The position numbers were made by a program, and so were the translations under genes. DNA of 64,000 nucleotides from Escherichia phage vB_Eco_NR1, in the sequence record LR990704; one strand, given 5' to 3'. Positions 3,488 to 42,490 of this stretch are shown here, piece after piece. Position 1 is the first letter of the stretch. Each line of letters opens with the position of its first letter. The notes under the pieces are model-generated. The model saw nothing but the letters and a program-made list of their open reading frames with translations. It had not been told where the DNA came from and did not search any database.

Positions 3488-5053
3488 ATGACTATCAAAA
3501 CTAAAGCTGAACTTTTGAACAAATGGAAACCATTACTGGAAGGTGAAGGTTTACCGGAAATTGCTAATAGCAAACAAGCGATTATCGCTAAAATCTTTGA
3601 AAACCAGGAAAAAGATTTCCATACAGCTCCAGAGTACAAAGACGAAAAAATCGCTCAGGCGTTTGGTTCTTTCTTAACAGAAGCTGAAATCGGTGGTGAC
3701 CACGGTTACAACGCTACTAACATCGCTGCTGGTCAGACTTCTGGCGCAGTAACTCAGATTGGCCCAGCTGTTATGGGTATGGTACGTCGTGCTATTCCTA
3801 ACCTGATTGCTTTCGATATTTGCGGTGTTCAGCCGATGAACAGCCCGACTGGTCAGGTATTCGCACTGCGCGCTGTATACGGTAAAGACCCAATCGCTGC
3901 CGATGCTAAAGAAGCATTCCACCCAATGTATGGCCCAGATGCAATGTTCTCTGGTCAGGGTGCTGCTAAGAAATTCCCAGCTCTGGCTGCTAGCACACAA
4001 ACCACAGTAGGTGATATCTATACTCACTTCTTCCAGGACACTGGTACTGTGTATCTGCAGGCTTCTGCTCAAGTAACAATTGATGCTGGTGCGACTGATG
4101 CTGCTAAATTAGATGCTGAAATTAAGAAACAAATGGAAGCAGGTGTACTGGTAGAAATCGCTGAAGGTATGGCTACTTCTATCGCTGAACTTCAGGAAGG
4201 TTTTAACGGTTCTACCGATAACCCATGGAATGAAATGGGCTTCCGTATCGATAAACAAGTTATCGAAGCTAAATCTCGTCAGCTGAAAGCTGCTTACTCT
4301 ATTGAATTAGCACAAGACCTTCGCGCTGTTCACGGTATGGATGCTGATGCTGAACTGTCCGGTATTCTGGCTACCGAAATTATGCTGGAAATCAACCGCG
4401 AAGTTGTTGATTGGATTAACTACTCCGCTCAGGTTGGTAAATCTGGTATGACCCTGACTCCGGGTTCTAAAGCTGGTGTATTTGACTTCCAGGACCCAAT
4501 CGATATTCGTGGTGCTCGCTGGGCGGGTGAATCCTTTAAAGCTCTGTTGTTCCAGATTGACAAAGAAGCAGTTGAAATTGCTCGTCAGACCGGTCGTGGT
4601 GAAGGTAACTTCATTATCGCTTCCCGTAACGTAGTTAACGTTCTGGCTTCAGTTGATACTGGCATTTCTTATGCTGCACAGGGTCTGGCTACCGGCTTTA
4701 ACACTGATACTACCAAGTCAGTATTTGCTGGTGTTCTGGGTGGTAAATACCGTGTATATATCGACCAGTATGCTAAACAGGATTATTTCACTGTAGGTTA
4801 TAAAGGTCCGAACGAAATGGATGCTGGTATTTACTATGCTCCATATGTAGCTCTGACTCCGCTGCGTGGTTCCGATCCGAAGAACTTCCAACCAGTAATG
4901 GGATTCAAAACTCGTTACGGTATCGGTATCAACCCATTTGCAGAATCCGCTGCTCAGGCTCCGGCTTCTCGCATCCAGAGCGGTATGCCTTCTATTCTGA
5001 ATAGCCTTGGTAAAAACGCTTACTTCCGCCGTGTATATGTTAAAGGTATCTAA
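3488..5053 (+). CDS. 23: major capsid protein gp23
   Basis: 521 aa; N-terminus MTIKTKAELLNKWKPLLEGEG.. recognised as T4 gp23; strong SD; stem-loop terminator downstream. Confidence 0.97.
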   Translation: MTIKTKAELLNKWKPLLEGEGLPEIANSKQAIIAKIFENQEKDFHTAPEYKDEKIAQAFGSFLTEAEIGGDHGYNATNIAAGQTSGAVTQIGPAVMGMVRRAIPNLIAFDICGVQPMNSPTGQVFALRAVYGKDPIAADAKEAFHPMYGPDAMFSGQGAAKKFPALAASTQTTVGDIYTHFFQDTGTVYLQASAQVTIDAGATDAAKLDAEIKKQMEAGVLVEIAEGMATSIAELQEGFNGSTDNPWNEMGFRIDKQVIEAKSRQLKAAYSIELAQDLRAVHGMDADAELSGILATEIMLEINREVVDWINYSAQVGKSGMTLTPGSKAGVFDFQDPIDIRGARWAGESFKALLFQIDKEAVEIARQTGRGEGNFIIASRNVVNVLASVDTGISYAAQGLATGFNTDTTKSVFAGVLGGKYRVYIDQYAKQDYFTVGYKGPNEMDAGIYYAPYVALTPLRGSDPKNFQPVMGFKTRYGIGINPFAESAAQAPASRIQSGMPSILNSLGKNAYFRRVYVKGI

Positions 5054-16104: not shown

Positions 16105-17873
16105 AAAAGCCACAAGAAATGCAAACGATGCGTAGAAAAGTTATTTCAGATAATAAACCAACACAGGAAGCGGCTAAATCCGCTTCTAACACTTTATCTG
16201 GACTTAACGATATATCTACGAAATTGGATGATGCTCAAGCTGCTTCTGAATTAATTGCTCAAACTGTCGAAGAAAAATCGAATGAAATAATTGGAGCAAT
16301 TGACAACGTAGAAAGCGCAGTGAGTGATACTACTGCCGGTTCTGAGTTAATTGCTGAAACTGTCGAAATTGGCAATAATATTAATAAAGAAATCGGTGAA
16401 TCACTCGGGAGCAAATTAGATAAATTAACAAGTTTACTAGAGCAAAAAATTCAGACAGCTGGAATTCAACAGACGGGAACTAGTTTAGCTACGGTTGAAA
16501 GCGCTATTCCTGTTAAAGTTGTTGAGGACGATACAGCTGAATCTGTGGGTCCTTTATTACCGGCTCCTGAAGCAGTTAATAATGATCCTGATGCTGATTT
16601 TTTCCCTACCCCTCAGCCAGTCGAACCTAAACAAGAATCGCCAGAAGAAAAACAGAAAAAAGACGCATTTAACTTAAAATTATCTCAAGCTTTAGATAAA
16701 TTAACAAAGACTGTTGATTTCGGATTTAAGAAATCTATTTCAATTACTGATAAAATATCAAGCATGCTATTTAAGTATACCGTCAGTGCTGCTATTGAAG
16801 CTGCTAAAATGACTGCAATGATATTGGCTGTTGTTGTTGGAATAGATCTGCTGATGGTTCACTTTAAATATTGGTCAGATAAATTTTCGCAGGCTTGGGA
16901 TTTGTTTAGTTCAAACTTTACTAAATTCTCTAGCGAAACCGGAACATGGGGTCCTTTATTACAGAGCATCTTTAGTTCTATTGATGAAATTAAAAAATTC
17001 TGGGAAGAGGGAGATTGGGGCGGTTTGACGGTAGCTATTGTAGAAGGGCTTGGAAAGGTTCTTTATAATTTAGGAGAACTTATTCAGCTTGGAATGGCTA
17101 AATTATCTGCTGCAATTCTTCGAGTCATTCCTGGCATGAAGGATACCGCTGATGAAGTAGAAGGAAGAGCACTAGAAAATTTCCAAAATTCTACTGGAGC
17201 ATCTCTCAATAAAGAAGACCAGGAAAAAGTTGCAAATTATCAAGATAAACGAATGAACGGAGACCTTGGTCCGATAGCAAAAGGATTAGATAAAATTGCT
17301 AATTGGAAAACTCGTGCATCTAACTGGATTCGTGGCGTTGATAATAAAGAAGCACTAACTACCGACGAAGAACGCGCAGCAGAAGAAGAAAAATTAAAGC
17401 AACTTTCACCAGAAGAAAGAAAAAATGCTTTAATGAAGGCTAATGAAGCTCGGGCCGCGATGATTCGTTTTGAAAAATATGCTGATTCAGCTGATATGAG
17501 TAAAGACTCAACGGTTAAATCAGTTGAAGCTGCCTATGAAGACCTTAAAAAACGGATGGATGACCCGGATTTAAATAATTCACCGGCAGTTAAAAAAGAA
17601 CTTGCTGCTAGATTTTCTAAAATTGATGCTACTTATCAAGAGCTCAAGAAAAATCAGCCTAATGCCAAACCTGAAACTTCTGCTAAATCGCCAGAAGCAA
17701 AACAAGTCCAGGTAATAGAAAAGAACAAAGCACAGCAAGCTCCTGTTCAACAAGCATCTCCTTCGATCAATAATACTAATAATGTTGTTAAGAAAAATAC
17801 TGTCGTTCATAATATGACACCCGTAACGAGCACGACTGCTCCTGGTGTATTTGACGCGACTGGAGTTAATTAA
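16101..17873 (+). CDS. 29: tail tube length determinator / baseplate hub gp29
   Basis: 590 aa; canonical position. Confidence 0.93.
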   Translation: MKKPQEMQTMRRKVISDNKPTQEAAKSASNTLSGLNDISTKLDDAQAASELIAQTVEEKSNEIIGAIDNVESAVSDTTAGSELIAETVEIGNNINKEIGESLGSKLDKLTSLLEQKIQTAGIQQTGTSLATVESAIPVKVVEDDTAESVGPLLPAPEAVNNDPDADFFPTPQPVEPKQESPEEKQKKDAFNLKLSQALDKLTKTVDFGFKKSISITDKISSMLFKYTVSAAIEAAKMTAMILAVVVGIDLLMVHFKYWSDKFSQAWDLFSSNFTKFSSETGTWGPLLQSIFSSIDEIKKFWEEGDWGGLTVAIVEGLGKVLYNLGELIQLGMAKLSAAILRVIPGMKDTADEVEGRALENFQNSTGASLNKEDQEKVANYQDKRMNGDLGPIAKGLDKIANWKTRASNWIRGVDNKEALTTDEERAAEEEKLKQLSPEERKNALMKANEARAAMIRFEKYADSADMSKDSTVKSVEAAYEDLKKRMDDPDLNNSPAVKKELAARFSKIDATYQELKKNQPNAKPETSAKSPEAKQVQVIEKNKAQQAPVQQASPSINNTNNVVKKNTVVHNMTPVTSTTAPGVFDATGVN

Positions 17874-36786: not shown

Positions 36787-37965
36787 TTAAAAGTATTTTT
36801 TAAAACTCATCATAACTTTATCATCAACATCATTATCAATCTGTGCAACAAGGTAAGATGACAGTTCTACTTCTTGTGGCGCGGATTGAACATTATCAGA
36901 ATTAAGATATTCACGAATCCAAGGATATGGATGTTTAACCGGAGCATCGGTAATCGGGCATGGAAGACCACACTGTTTCATACGAGATACAGTTAAGTAA
37001 TCAATAAAGCTCCACATGCTATTTGTATTTAATCCAGGAACATCGCCATCTTTAAATAAATGAACTGCCCAATCTTTTTCTTGGCGGTTAACTTCCATGA
37101 AAATATCAACTGCTTCTTGTTCACACTCTTGAGCAATTTTAACCCATTGATCGCCATCAGTACCAGATTGAAGTTGACGAATAATATATTGGGTGCCTTT
37201 AAGGTGAAGCTGTTCATCGCGTGCAATGAACTTCATAATCTTGGCATTACCTTCCATGATTTCCATGTTCTTATGGAAGTTAAAGGTACATGCGAAAGAT
37301 ACATAAAAACGAATAGCTTCCAATGCGTTAATTACATGCAAACAGAGGTAAAGAGATTTCATTAGCTCACGCTTCCAATATGTCTCATGCTCAATAGCAT
37401 CTTCAATAACGTCTTCGTCTGCATTAATTTCTTTTTGGTATTCGATATCAGCTTTAGCGTTTTCCCAATAACGAGTTTTAATCAGAACATCATCATAATA
37501 ACGTCCAATGGATTCAGCACGTTTCATAATAGCTTCATCTAATACAATTTCATCAAATACCTTCGATGGATCAGTATAAAGATTTCGCATGATATGTGTA
37601 TATGAACGGCTGTGAATAGTTTCACTAAAAGTCCATGTAGCAACCCATGTATCAAGGCTTGGGTCTGAAATTAATGACATAAGTACAGCAGATGGCGCAC
37701 GACCCTGAATGCTATCCAAAAGTGATTGATACTTCAGGTTATTAGTAAAAATATTTTGCTGATACTGAGGAAGCTTGTTAAATTGTGCAGCATCCATCAT
37801 TAAGTTTACTTCTTCAGGACGCCAGAAAAATGACAATTGCTTTTCGGTTAAATCTTCAAAAACTTTATGGCGTTGAATATCATAACGCGCAATACCAAGA
37901 CCTGAACCGAAGAACATAGGTTCTTTTAAAACATCAACTGGATTTGTATTAAAAACTGTAGACAT
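36787..37965 (-). CDS. nrdB: ribonucleotide reductase beta subunit, uninterrupted
   Basis: 392 aa contiguous ORF; no intron. Confidence 0.95.
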   Translation of the reverse strand: MSTVFNTNPVDVLKEPMFFGSGLGIARYDIQRHKVFEDLTEKQLSFFWRPEEVNLMMDAAQFNKLPQYQQNIFTNNLKYQSLLDSIQGRAPSAVLMSLISDPSLDTWVATWTFSETIHSRSYTHIMRNLYTDPSKVFDEIVLDEAIMKRAESIGRYYDDVLIKTRYWENAKADIEYQKEINADEDVIEDAIEHETYWKRELMKSLYLCLHVINALEAIRFYVSFACTFNFHKNMEIMEGNAKIMKFIARDEQLHLKGTQYIIRQLQSGTDGDQWVKIAQECEQEAVDIFMEVNRQEKDWAVHLFKDGDVPGLNTNSMWSFIDYLTVSRMKQCGLPCPITDAPVKHPYPWIREYLNSDNVQSAPQEVELSSYLVAQIDNDVDDKVMMSFKKYF

Positions 37966-37999
37966 ATTATTCTCGCTTATTATGGTTTAAATTATTTAA

Positions 38000-38791
38000 T
38001 CACATATTGTGTATAAGCACTTCGGTCTGAAATGATGCACCCTTCTTTTGCTTCCTATACATGGTTTCAAAATATTCAATTTTGAAATTATTAGAAAGGG
38101 CCCAATCTTTTAAAATATAATTATTAATATCGTCTGATAGATTATTAGTGATAATAAATTTAGACTTCGATTGTTTAATTTTGTCTAATAATTCTAATTC
38201 ATCCTTTTCTTCCCAGCCTGAATATTTAAATTTAGTAGAAAGATACGGCGGGTCAATGAATAAATTTTTGTTTTCAAAATCCAAATCTCTGAATGATTTA
38301 TTACTAAATGTAAATCGGTGCTGTCTATTTTTAAATTCAGAAAATTTATCCTGCTGAGACTTATTAAAAGAAGTTCTGGAATACTTGGCTCTATTGGCGA
38401 AAGCCGCGTTATAATTCCCATTACTAGAAAATCGGATTAACGAACTGAATGAAAATAAATGTAGAACATAAAGATATAATCCGTTTTTGGTTTTATCGTA
38501 TTCTTTTGACAGATTATAAAAAGGTGCTGAATCTTTGTCATTCAAATTAAAATCTTCAATAATTTTAACTATATCATTAATTGAAGATGATTTCATCTTT
38601 TTATACATGTCTATAAGAGGAGTATTAATATCATTACATATAACATCTCTCTGACAATTCATAGAAAATCCAAGACCACCACAAAAAGCATCCAAAACAG
38701 GCTTATCGTCAAAGCGGTTTGAAAATTGTCTAATAAATGGCATATACTTATGTTTTGCACCTGGATATGTTATGGCAGGTAGGTCTTTCAT
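38000..38791 (-). CDS. Dam-family N6-adenine DNA methyltransferase-like protein
   Basis: 263 aa; N-terminal YPGAK, motif I DAFCGGLGF (FxGxG) and motif IV IDPPYL in alpha-class order; AT-rich relative to the flanking nrd genes. Confidence 0.8.
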   Translation of the reverse strand: MKDLPAITYPGAKHKYMPFIRQFSNRFDDKPVLDAFCGGLGFSMNCQRDVICNDINTPLIDMYKKMKSSSINDIVKIIEDFNLNDKDSAPFYNLSKEYDKTKNGLYLYVLHLFSFSSLIRFSSNGNYNAAFANRAKYSRTSFNKSQQDKFSEFKNRQHRFTFSNKSFRDLDFENKNLFIDPPYLSTKFKYSGWEEKDELELLDKIKQSKSKFIITNNLSDDINNYILKDWALSNNFKIEYFETMYRKQKKGASFQTEVLIHNM

Positions 38792-38834
38792 ATTATTTCT
38801 CGTTGTTGGTGACTCGTCCGTGAGTCAAATTATA

Positions 38835-41099
38835 TCATAATTTACAGGATGAACAATCTTCAGCTTTTGGAGTTTCTATTTCATAATCATCAGTACCAGA
38901 ACCATCACGGGTATTATGATAATAGAAATTTTTTCCGCCAAAATACCAAAAGTACAAAAGGTCATCAATCATTACAGACATTGGAACCTTTCCTTTTGGA
39001 AAAATCTGCGGGTCATAATATGTATTTGCTGAAGCTGATTGACATACCCATTTAAGCATAATAGCTACCTGCGTAAGATAAGGTTTATTACCTTTCTTAG
39101 CTAATTTCCATGTATAATCATAGAGGTCTATGTTATGCTCAATATTGGGCACGACTTGATTAAAGGAGCCCTCTTTTGATTCTTTAACAGAGACTGGTCC
39201 ACGTGGAGGCTCGATACCGTTTGTACTGTTAGAAACTTGGGAAGATGACTCACATGGCATAAGTGCTGATAATGTGCTATTACGGATGCCAAAGAGCTTA
39301 AGGTCTTCCCGCAGCGACGACCAGTCACAAACGTATTTTGGAGCTGCGATTTGGTCAATCTTTTTATTGTACCAGTCGATAGGTAATTCGCCTCGAGACC
39401 AACGAGTGTCTGAATAATATTCGCAAGGTCCTTTTTCTTTGGCGAGCTTAATGGATGCTTTAATGAGTCCATACTGTAATCTCTCAAATAGTTCATGTGT
39501 TAAATCGTTAGCATCTTCATAAGAAGCAAAGTTACTTGCCAGCCAAGCTGCATAGTTAGTAACACCTACACCGAGGTTACGACGCTTTTTAGCTTTTTCT
39601 GCTTCAGGAACTGGATATCCTTGGTAATCCAAAAGATTATCAAGAGCACGAACTTGGACTTCTGCCAATTCATTAATTTTATCTTGGTCTTGCCAGTCAA
39701 AATTATCCAGTACGAATGCAGATAACGTACACAATCCAATTTCAGCATCAGGACTATTCACATCATTTGTTGGAATAGCAATTTCACAACACAAGTTACT
39801 CTGACGAATAGGTGCCTTTTCACGAATAAACGGAGTATAGTTATTCGTATTATCAATGAACTGTACATAAATCCTTGCTGTTCCTGAACGTTCAGTCATG
39901 AGCAATTCAAATAGTTCACGGGCTTTAATACGCTTTTTACGAATATTAGGGTCTTTTTCTGCTGCTTCGTATAATTCACGGAAACGGTCTTGGTCTTTAA
40001 AATAAGAATAATAAAGCTCTCCACCCATTTCATGTGGACTGAACAAAGTAATGTAATCGTTCTTTCCAAATCGTTCCATCATCAAATCATTCAGCTGAAC
40101 GCCATAATCCATATGACGAATGCGGTTTTCTTCTACGCCTTTGTTATTTTTCAAAACGAGAAGATTTTCAACTTCCAAATGCCAAATAGGATAATAAGCA
40201 GTAGCAGCGCCGCCACGAATTCCACCCTGTGAACATGATTTAACTGCAGTCTGAAAATGTTTCCAAAAAGGAATAACACCAGTATGACGTACTTCACCCA
40301 TGCCAATCTTAGAACCTTCAGCACGAATCATACCAACATTAATACCAATTCCAGCGCGTTTAGAGATATATTCAACAATTGAAGCGGAAGCCTTATTGAT
40401 AGACTTCAATGAATCACCTGCCTCAATAACAACACATGAACTAAACTGTCGAGTTGGAGTACGGCAACCAGCCATAATAGGAGTTGGCAATGAAATCTGT
40501 CGAGTAGATACTGCTTCATAAAAACGGATAACATGTTTTAATCTATCAACAGGTTCATCTTGATGCAGTGCCATTCCAATAGTCATAAATGCAAACTGCG
40601 GAGTTTCATAAATTTGACCAGTGGTTTTATCTTTAACTAGATATTTTTCTTTTAATTGCATCGCACCGGAATAAGTAAATTCCATATCCCGCTCGTGCTT
40701 AATTTTTGATTCTAAAAATGTAATTTCTTCTGCTGAATATTTTGACAATAATTCAGGGTCATATTTACCTGCATTTACACAGTAAGAAATATGGTCAATA
40801 AATGAACGCGGTTCATACTGCCCGTAAACATGCTTACGAAGAGCAAACATTAAACAGCGTGCAGCTACATATTGATAATCAGGCTCTTCAACCGAAATAG
40901 AATTCGCAGCAGCCTTAATTACAATAGTTTGAATGTCATCAGTGGTCATTCCATCACGGAGATATGATTTAATATTTTCATATAATTCATAAGGATCTAC
41001 AGATGTTCCTTCAGCTGCCCAAGATAAAACTTTAATAATTTTTTGTGGGTCAAAGCTCTGAGAAACACCACTACTTTTGATAACATTAATTAATTGCAT
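38835..41099 (-). CDS. nrdA: ribonucleotide reductase alpha subunit
   Basis: 754 aa; [22 protein letters not shown].. recognised as T4 NrdA. Confidence 0.97.
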   Translation of the reverse strand: MQLINVIKSSGVSQSFDPQKIIKVLSWAAEGTSVDPYELYENIKSYLRDGMTTDDIQTIVIKAAANSISVEEPDYQYVAARCLMFALRKHVYGQYEPRSFIDHISYCVNAGKYDPELLSKYSAEEITFLESKIKHERDMEFTYSGAMQLKEKYLVKDKTTGQIYETPQFAFMTIGMALHQDEPVDRLKHVIRFYEAVSTRQISLPTPIMAGCRTPTRQFSSCVVIEAGDSLKSINKASASIVEYISKRAGIGINVGMIRAEGSKIGMGEVRHTGVIPFWKHFQTAVKSCSQGGIRGGAATAYYPIWHLEVENLLVLKNNKGVEENRIRHMDYGVQLNDLMMERFGKNDYITLFSPHEMGGELYYSYFKDQDRFRELYEAAEKDPNIRKKRIKARELFELLMTERSGTARIYVQFIDNTNNYTPFIREKAPIRQSNLCCEIAIPTNDVNSPDAEIGLCTLSAFVLDNFDWQDQDKINELAEVQVRALDNLLDYQGYPVPEAEKAKKRRNLGVGVTNYAAWLASNFASYEDANDLTHELFERLQYGLIKASIKLAKEKGPCEYYSDTRWSRGELPIDWYNKKIDQIAAPKYVCDWSSLREDLKLFGIRNSTLSALMPCESSSQVSNSTNGIEPPRGPVSVKESKEGSFNQVVPNIEHNIDLYDYTWKLAKKGNKPYLTQVAIMLKWVCQSASANTYYDPQIFPKGKVPMSVMIDDLLYFWYFGGKNFYYHNTRDGSGTDDYEIETPKAEDCSSCKL

Positions 41100-41416: not shown

Positions 41417-41633
41417 ATTGTTTTTCCGTTAAAACAGTAATATCGTAGTAACAGTCAGAAGAAGTTTTAACTGTGGAAATTTTATTATCAAAATACTCAC
41501 GAGTCATTTTATGAGTATAATATTTTTTACCATAAATGATAATAGGCTGTTCTGGTCCTGGAACTTCTAACTCGCTTGGGTTAGGAAGTGTAAAAAGAAC
41601 AACGCCAGAAGTATCTTTAAATCGTAAAATCAT
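41370..41633 (-). CDS. hypothetical protein, 87 aa
   Basis: ORF with ATGA coupling to the td stop; overlaps the next ORF by 47 nt in another frame. Confidence 0.5.
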
Positions 41634-42490
41634 ATTGCCATTTTCCCTTTAATTGCTGGATGCGATTCATAATTTTCAAGGATAAAATCTTTCGGTTTCA
41701 TGTATTCAGTTAACCAGTAAAGCTGTGTTTCGGTGTCACAATTTCCAAACTCTATAGGCCAATCAATTTTAAGTTCACATAGTTCTTTAGGCTCACGACG
41801 TAAAATTTCTTTACATTGCTCAGTATGATTCATATAGATGTGAGTATTACCACCAGAAAATATCAAATCTCCTGGGATAAGATTACACATCTTAGCCACA
41901 ATATGCGTCAAGGCAGCGTACGAGGCAATGTTGAATGGCAATCCCAAGAAAACATCTACACTTCTTTGGTACCATTGTAAATCAAGATAACCATTACGCA
42001 CATTAAACTGATAGAACATATGACAGGGCGGTAATGCCATTTGATTGATTTCAGCTGGATTCCATGCTGAAACGATTTGACGTCGATCAGTTGGTAATTT
42101 TTTAATACGATCAATAGTTTCAACTAATTGATCCACACCACCGAAATCACGCCATTGTTTACCGTATATAGGACCAAGTTCACCACTATGATATCCTAGG
42201 TCTTTAGCCTGGTTTTCATAGTTATCGTCCCAAATAGTTTTGCCTTGAATAAGACTACCATGAGTGCGAAGACGTAAATCATTAACATTGGTAGAACCGG
42301 AAATAAACCATAAAAGCTCAGCAATGCATGCATTCCAGGCGAGCTTCTTAGTTGTTACTGCAGGAAAACCTTTACTTAAATCCCAGCGTAATTTAGTACC
42401 GAACAAAGCAATTGTTCCTGTGCCCGTTCGGTCATCGGTTTCATAGCCATTTTCAAAAATGTCTTTAATTAAATCTTGGTATTGTTTCAT
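41630..42490 (-). CDS. td: thymidylate synthase, uninterrupted
   Basis: 286 aa contiguous ORF (..[10 protein letters not shown]..); no group I intron. Confidence 0.97.

Follow-up and report, generated by a model that had tools for sequence, protein, structure and literature searches.

The nrdA–nrdB locus

The window, that is, the whole 64,000-nt stretch of the Escherichia phage vB_Eco_NR1 genome analysed here, is a Tequatrovirus (T4-like) segment, its first 25 kb being up to 97.8% identical to T4-like phages. It corresponds approximately to the T4 map positions 99–163 kb, and the canonical dam slot between genes 56 and 61 lies outside it. The minus strand carries, in this order, nrdA, a 263-aa ORF, nrdB, denA and rnlA (Table 1). 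The ORF had been reported between nrdB and nrdA in an earlier note made from the letters of the sequence, and it is indeed found there, the gap between the nrdA stop codon and its start being 43 nt, and that between its end and the nrdB start, 34 nt. The nrdB, nrdA and td (41630–42490) genes are all uninterrupted here; unlike T4, the window has no I-TevIII/I-TevI intron and no mobE.

Table 1. Coordinates of the features at the nrdA–nrdB locus of the window
Feature	Coordinates	Strand	Basis or remark
Methyltransferase CDS, 263 aa	38000..38791	-	ORF; TGA stop codon 38000–38002 included
nrdA, 754 aa, uninterrupted, upstream flank	38835..41099	-	ORF
nrdB, 392 aa, no intron, downstream flank	36787..37965	-	ORF
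Cassette 5' junction and translation-initiation region, CCAACAACGAGAAATAAT before ATG	38792..38808	-	Alignment with the empty site of RB27
Methyltransferase–nrdB spacer, TTAAATAATTTAAACCATAATAAGCGAGAATAAT, with the nrdB ribosome-binding region	37966..37999	-	Differs from the insert-free nrdB leader
TATAAT box (38834..38829), then hairpin (38827..38810)	38810..38834	-	nrdA 3' backbone, outside the cassette

The GC content of the ORF is 29.2%, compared to 36.1% in the window, 35.9% in nrdB and 37.3% in nrdA, and belongs to the lowest 1.2% of all 792-bp segments, in agreement with the earlier observation that the ORF is more AT-rich than its nrd neighbours. We considered this composition as a sign of foreign origin setting the gene apart from dam, and dropped it: as the GC content of the canonical T4 dam is 27.7%, AT-richness is not distinctive for a dam gene.

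A small dyad, TGACTC..GAGTCA, with a 6-bp stem and a 6-nt loop, follows a TATAAT box located directly 3' of the nrdA stop codon. The empty site of phage RB27 and every genus examined (Tequatrovirus, Gelderlandvirus and Marfavirus-type loci) also have the dyad, which hence belongs to the 3' backbone of nrdA and not to the methyltransferase cassette. Thus, the sequence and position of the dyad (38810..38827) are as described in the earlier note, and the dyad has no relation to the methyltransferase. The Marfavirus-type stem is GGCTC..GAGCC instead of GACTC/GAGTC, a change on both sides that preserves pairing; among seven sequences, two of the six pairs are changed. The hairpin fold is weak (-7.5 kcal/mol, z=-1.1), and the stem is not followed by a T-run, so it is not an intrinsic terminator. 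Given its presence in the insert-free site, the missing T-run and the weak fold, the dyad was rejected both as a part of the gene and as a terminator. The TATAAT box and the hairpin might together serve either as a promoter plus a 5' stem or to stabilise the 3' end of the mRNA.

Family assignment

All elements of the Dam signature claimed previously for the ORF product are present in the order of the alpha class: Y9-P-G11-A-K13 (YxGxK, residues 9–13), D34-A-F-C-G-G-L-G-F42 (DAFCGGLGF, residues 34–42) and I179-D-P-P-Y-L184 (IDPPYL, residues 179–184), with F36-C-G-G39 followed by the hairpin region (residues 111–143) and then by D180-P-P-Y183. The catalytic and cofactor motifs FxGxG, NDI and DPPY and the N-terminal lysine are all intact, and a T4Dam-like target-recognition hairpin is present in the protein.

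Comparison with profiles of the MethyltransfD12/Dam families yields a match to Pfam PF02086 (MethyltransfD12) with E=5.5e-24, covering profile positions 1–251 of 253, the score of 85.7 bits being above the gathering threshold (cutoff 22). The protein also matches the phrog_56 'DNA methyltransferase' profile (E=9e-36), and the best PADLOC model is the orphan methyltransferase (oMTase) PDLC03722 (E=9e-40). No domain besides the D12 methyltransferase was detected with the Pfam and PHROG profiles; in particular, HNH and GIY-YIG nuclease domains were not found. The top-scoring protein of solved structure is T4 Dam (E=4e-38 over residues 4–252), with DpnM (E=3e-6) and E. coli Dam (E=1e-4) far behind. 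The AlphaFold (AF2) model of the protein, with pLDDT 86.8, was compared by Foldseek with the T4Dam–DNA complexes (1YF3, 1YFJ, 1YFL; TM 0.81–0.83, E=1e-21) and with EcoDam and DpnM (TM 0.70–0.76). The profile, PADLOC, solved-structure and model matches therefore assign the protein to T4Dam-like alpha-class N6-adenine DNA methyltransferases, and the Dam-class (D12, alpha) identity proposed at first reading stands, given PF02086, the E-value with T4 Dam and TM of 0.83. Several GenBank records already label the gene in the nrdA–nrdB interval as 'DNA adenine methylase'; no dedicated description of it was found in the literature searched.

The score of the window protein with NCBIfam TIGR00571, the curated Dam subfamily, is 94.1 bits, below the cutoff of 114.85. 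The allele of the type seen in phage BGP (71.5 bits) and Dam of the Alcaligenes phage Afa-NA1 (91.4 bits) are below the cutoff as well, and the controls, T4Dam and Dam of Krischvirus ECD7, score 239.5 and 152.4 bits, respectively.

The pairwise dN/dS ratios among six alleles are 0.06–0.18, with dS up to about 1.3, and therefore the protein is maintained by purifying selection. The low score relative to the curated Dam threshold and the AT-rich accessory nature of the DNA might be taken to indicate that the gene is decaying or its product has lost catalysis, or that the substrate of the methyltransferase is not DNA. We consider both extremely unlikely, as the catalytic and SAM-binding motifs are all intact, the dN/dS ratios stay in this range over alleles diverged to dS of about 1, and the full-length fold, as modelled, matches T4Dam including the DNA-binding hairpin.

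Relation to T4 dam and other known systems

The T4 dam gene is located at 16846–17625, between genes 56 and 61, and the nrdA–nrdB interval of T4 holds mobE and nrdB.1; hence the T4 layout described in the earlier note is right. T4Dam (PDB 1Q0S, 1YF3, 1YFJ, 1YFL), an orphan GATC N6-adenine methyltransferase, has the same fold as the window protein and almost the same size (259 vs 263 aa), and shares with it the alpha-class order of motifs, the N-terminal lysine, the beta-hairpin recognition loop and the DPPY active site. Both are orphan enzymes of T-even phages encoded by AT-rich genes (28% GC in T4, 29% here). On the other hand, the two differ in the genomic slot (gene 56–gene 61 vs nrdA–nrdB) and in the branch of the tree, the window protein scores below the TIGR00571 cutoff, and its hairpin has alanine in place of both Pro126 and Gly128, as well as an insertion of six residues.

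The identity between the window protein and T4Dam is about 34%, compared to 46–62% between canonical Dam orthologues from other Straboviridae genera and T4Dam. In the neighbour-joining tree, the protein and its close homologues group with Afa-NA1 Dam, outside the canonical Straboviridae group comprising Dam of T4, KP179 and ECD7. An exhaustive search among 1.84 billion representative proteins shows that the lineage is a single 50%-identity cluster, with the next best match being 34% identical. It is this search that establishes the isolation of the lineage; a word-indexed protein search retrieved just 20 relatives, T4Dam not being among them.

The nearest relative outside the clade is annotated as 'DNA adenine methylase Dam' of Afa-NA1 (PV550095.1; 40% identity, E=6e-40). 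Like the window protein, it has alanine at the position of Pro126, an insertion at the same place and a score below the curated Dam cutoff. However, Afa-NA1 is an unrelated 78-kb phage of a betaproteobacterium, and its dam adjoins a topoisomerase gene rather than nrdA or nrdB. E. coli Dam and DpnM (GATC, TIGR00571 subfamily) belong to the same D12 class and read DNA with the hairpin and the N-terminal lysine, but are only 15–18% identical to the window protein in structural alignment.

It might be suggested that the canonical dam has simply been translocated to the nrdA–nrdB interval, since the carriers usually have no gene in the canonical slot (see below) and T4Dam is the closest solved structure. 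This explanation is barely credible: the canonical orthologues cluster together without the window protein, which is far less similar to T4Dam than they are; RB27, having neither the insert nor dam, demonstrates that dam is lost independently of the cassette; and BGP carries both genes. The earlier suggestion of a relocated dam is thus contradicted by the level of identity and by the placement in a different branch. On the strength of the sequence comparisons, the methyltransferase is a non-orthologous substitute for T4 dam and not a moved copy, and in annotation the nrdA–nrdB methyltransferase should not be equated with T4 dam.

In the Klebsiella phage KP179 (Jiaodavirus), the gene immediately ahead of the canonical dam is annotated as 'modification methylase MjaIII'. 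Hence tandem methyltransferases occur in other T4-like genera.

Distribution among T4-like phages

A 3-kb query around the gene matched 1023 phage records, and the insert was spanned in only seven of them. By tblastn, we identified eight carrier phage genomes from at least three genera; the gene is also present on three metagenome contigs. The alleles of T4_ev240, 236Ecol005PP, ECO07P2 and EP02SG are at least 98.5% identical to the window protein; the identity is 79.5% for BGP, about 78% for the Salmonella phage CF-SP2 (Gelderlandvirus) and fDHCT2, and 76% for the Klebsiella phage PhiKpNIH-6 (Marfavirus). The order nrdA–methyltransferase–nrdB is observed in all eight genomes and all three contigs. 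No gene for a cognate restriction enzyme or nuclease adjoins the methyltransferase at any examined locus, as it is directly flanked by nrdA and nrdB. In all instances found, the methyltransferase is an orphan (solitary) one, restricted to the nrdA–nrdB slot of T4-like phages.

Two of the carriers have mobile elements in the adjacent genes: nrdA of 236Ecol005PP is split by a mobile endonuclease, and nrdB of BGP has an intron with a homing endonuclease.

The slot between genes 56 and 61 contains no dam in T4_ev240 and 236Ecol005PP, both carrying the allele of the window. Six carrier genomes yield a single Dam-like tblastn match genome-wide, and the two matches in PhiKpNIH-6 are read as halves of one gene split by the ends of the record. 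BGP has both the canonical dam, BGP_066, in the 61–56 slot and an intact nrdA–nrdB allele, and the paper on this phage (PMC13390438) is consistent with the presence of two Dam-type genes. In the window, whose boundaries leave the canonical slot outside, there is no second Dam-like ORF. Since the canonical dam slot is empty, the methyltransferase is the only Dam-family enzyme in most carriers, and sole Dam is the more common state among them. A second methyltransferase, suggested in the earlier note as one possibility, is thus not the usual state: among the carrier genomes examined, it applies to BGP only, and does not apply to T4_ev240 and 236Ecol005PP with their empty slots or to the six genomes with one match. 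RB27, whose nrd flanks are the closest to those of the window, has neither the canonical dam nor the nrdA–nrdB methyltransferase.

Mutual exclusion between the cassette and the canonical dam was considered, but the numbers are too small: four out of five Tequatrovirus carriers have no canonical dam, compared to about 64% of Tequatrovirus overall. Dam with an identity to T4 Dam of 90% or more is present in about 182 records, compared to about 507 Tequatrovirus-level nrdA/nrdB matches. The presence of dam is optional among T-even phages, and the nrdA–nrdB locus would provide them with a second, non-orthologous route to a Dam-type enzyme.

The canonical dam of BGP is immediately preceded by BGP_065 (186 aa; positions 4404–4964 of the examined BGP locus), with a weak match to the PADLOC REase_II model (E=9e-5). 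In the Durham-collection paper BGP_065 is described as 'restriction enzyme-like'.

Exchange of the cassette

The degree of similarity of the insert does not follow that of its flanks. The methyltransferase genes of the window and T4_ev240 are 98.7% identical, whereas the identity of the adjoining nrdB is just 91.1%. Conversely, the window and the insert-free RB27 are 98.3% identical in the 3' 1500 nt of nrdA and 98.6% identical in nrdB. Between BGP (Tequatrovirus) and CF-SP2 (Gelderlandvirus), the identity is 91.5% in the methyltransferase and 81–83% in the flanks. This discordance indicates spread by recombination. The earlier view of the gene as accessory cargo in the slot occupied by mobE in T4 is upheld by the discordance and by the presence of the insert in only seven of the 1023 related records.

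In the alignment with the RB27 empty site, divergence starts immediately past the dyad. The leader following the dyad and the 34-nt spacer are common to all carriers, across genera. Moreover, codon 2 of nrdB (Ser; 37960–37965 in the window) reads TCT in every carrier, compared to AGC in RB27, and this multi-step synonymous difference implies that the exchanged segment reaches the first codons of nrdB. The simplest reading is that an approximately 830-bp cassette, which contains no endonuclease, has been swapped among phages and genera, presumably via homologous recombination in the conserved nrd flanks. The slot is a known hypervariable interval; the cassette is confined to it and crosses genera by recombination in the flanks.

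The spacer is CCTATAATAAG in T4_ev240, 236Ecol005PP and BGP. The window variant, CCATAATAAG, has a 1-nt deletion (37975–37980) that removes T of a TATAAT-like box.

The mobE/hef homing endonuclease genes occupy the same slot and are also promoter-less, AT-rich, optional and patchily distributed among T-even phages. Unlike them, the cassette encodes a methyltransferase and not an HNH or GIY-YIG nuclease, and there is no sign of self-driven spread. Still, the gene might have a selfish or immunity role connected with homing endonucleases, either by taking up the slot of mobE/hef or through methylation of the endonuclease target in nrdB; in this case the cassette would resist or exploit endonuclease-driven gene conversion. 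Its exact position at the insertion place of mobE (in T4) and hef, its movement independent of the flanks, and the endonucleases near some carriers (in nrdA of 236Ecol005PP and in the nrdB intron of BGP) are compatible with this possibility. It nevertheless seems very unlikely, as the cassette has no endonuclease domain, the nrdA, nrdB and td genes of the window are uninterrupted, GATC occurs just twice in nrdB and nowhere in the cassette, and ordinary homologous recombination in highly conserved flanks suffices.

Target site

Horton et al., in 2005, are said to have shown that residues K11, F111, S112, M114, R116, P126 and R130 of T4Dam contact GATC. The numbering of these positions was confirmed by alignment, and nothing specific on the roles of the T4Dam residues was found in the literature searched. 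In the window protein, K13, F115, S116, L118, R120 and R134 align to T4Dam K11, F111, S112, M114, R116 and R130, respectively. In EcoDam (PMC4417163), guanine is contacted by R124 and the adjacent A:T pair by L122 and P134; Y119 is intercalated, N120 forms a hydrogen bond, and recognition of the first base pair involves K9 and Y138. As most of the residues contacting GATC in T4Dam and EcoDam are kept in the window protein, its likeliest target site is GATC, an assignment that we regard as somewhat better than an even bet. If the specificity is plain GATC, the gene would be a routine accessory one.

Three features distinguish the recognition hairpin. First, Pro126 is replaced by alanine. We considered this replacement as evidence of a new specificity, and downgraded it: the position is variable in a survey of 146 relatives (P in 75, S in 29, A in 16, T in 13), and hence the replacement is not diagnostic. 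Second, Gly128, retained as glycine in 139 of the 146 relatives, is replaced by alanine. Third, a 6-aa insertion is located right after the Arg130 equivalent, so that the segment has 25 residues, compared to the modal 19 to 21; the insertion is modelled by AF2 at low confidence.

An alternative, unlikely but deserving attention, is an enzyme of the same class with a changed or relaxed target instead of plain GATC, producing a methylation pattern unlike that of canonical Dam. It is suggested by the two replacements in the hairpin and by the placement of the insertion beside the equivalent of T4Dam R130 and EcoDam Y138, implicated in recognition of the first base pair. The hairpin features are common to the sole near relative, Afa-NA1 Dam, scores are below the curated Dam cutoff throughout the branch, and BGP keeps both the nrdA–nrdB gene and the canonical dam intact. 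Against that, the equivalents of K11, F111, S112, R116 and R130 are kept without exception, residue 126 varies across the family as a whole, and a single genome with both genes may be explained by mosaic recombination alone. A hint of possible non-redundancy between the nrdA–nrdB enzyme and canonical Dam comes from their coexistence in BGP; the paper describing BGP reports cytosine modifications only (PMC13390438).

In a more specific and rather doubtful version, the nrdA–nrdB methyltransferase and its Afa-NA1 relative might constitute an offshoot of Dam, in which the remodelled hairpin would read a site other or broader than GATC and thus provide a second, non-redundant layer of adenine methylation. 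If true, this would explain both the retention of two genes by BGP and the passage of the cassette between T4-like genera.

The frequency of GATC was also considered as a clue to specificity. In the window, 72 sites are observed vs about 222 expected (O/E 0.32), but the homologous 50 kb of T4 (100000–149999) shows the same (0.28), and the depletion was judged uninformative. It is much stronger than that of other 4-bp palindromes (0.61 for CTAG, 0.70 for CATG) and appears to be a property of the lineage, independent of which dam gene is present.

Proposed function

Our main reading, to which we assign a probability of approximately 0.8, is that the product of the gene would be a functional orphan enzyme with the T4 Dam fold, using SAM to methylate DNA at N6 of adenine and representing a small divergent lineage of the nrdA–nrdB slot. 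It is probably co-transcribed with nrdA and nrdB, as suggested by the common strand, the short gaps of 43 and 34 nt, its own weak Shine–Dalgarno sequence and the lack of a terminator, with nrdA being the probable source of read-through transcription. The enzyme is predicted to act on replicating phage DNA, flipping out adenine at a short site and methylating it, and the resulting Dam-type mark would block methylation-sensitive nucleases.

Adenine methylation by phages can prevent restriction, and some defences can be triggered by it. Hence the Dam type of a therapeutic T4-like phage and the site that it marks are of practical value. One example of such triggering is the activation of retron Ec86 by a phage-encoded methyltransferase (cited in PMC12871103).
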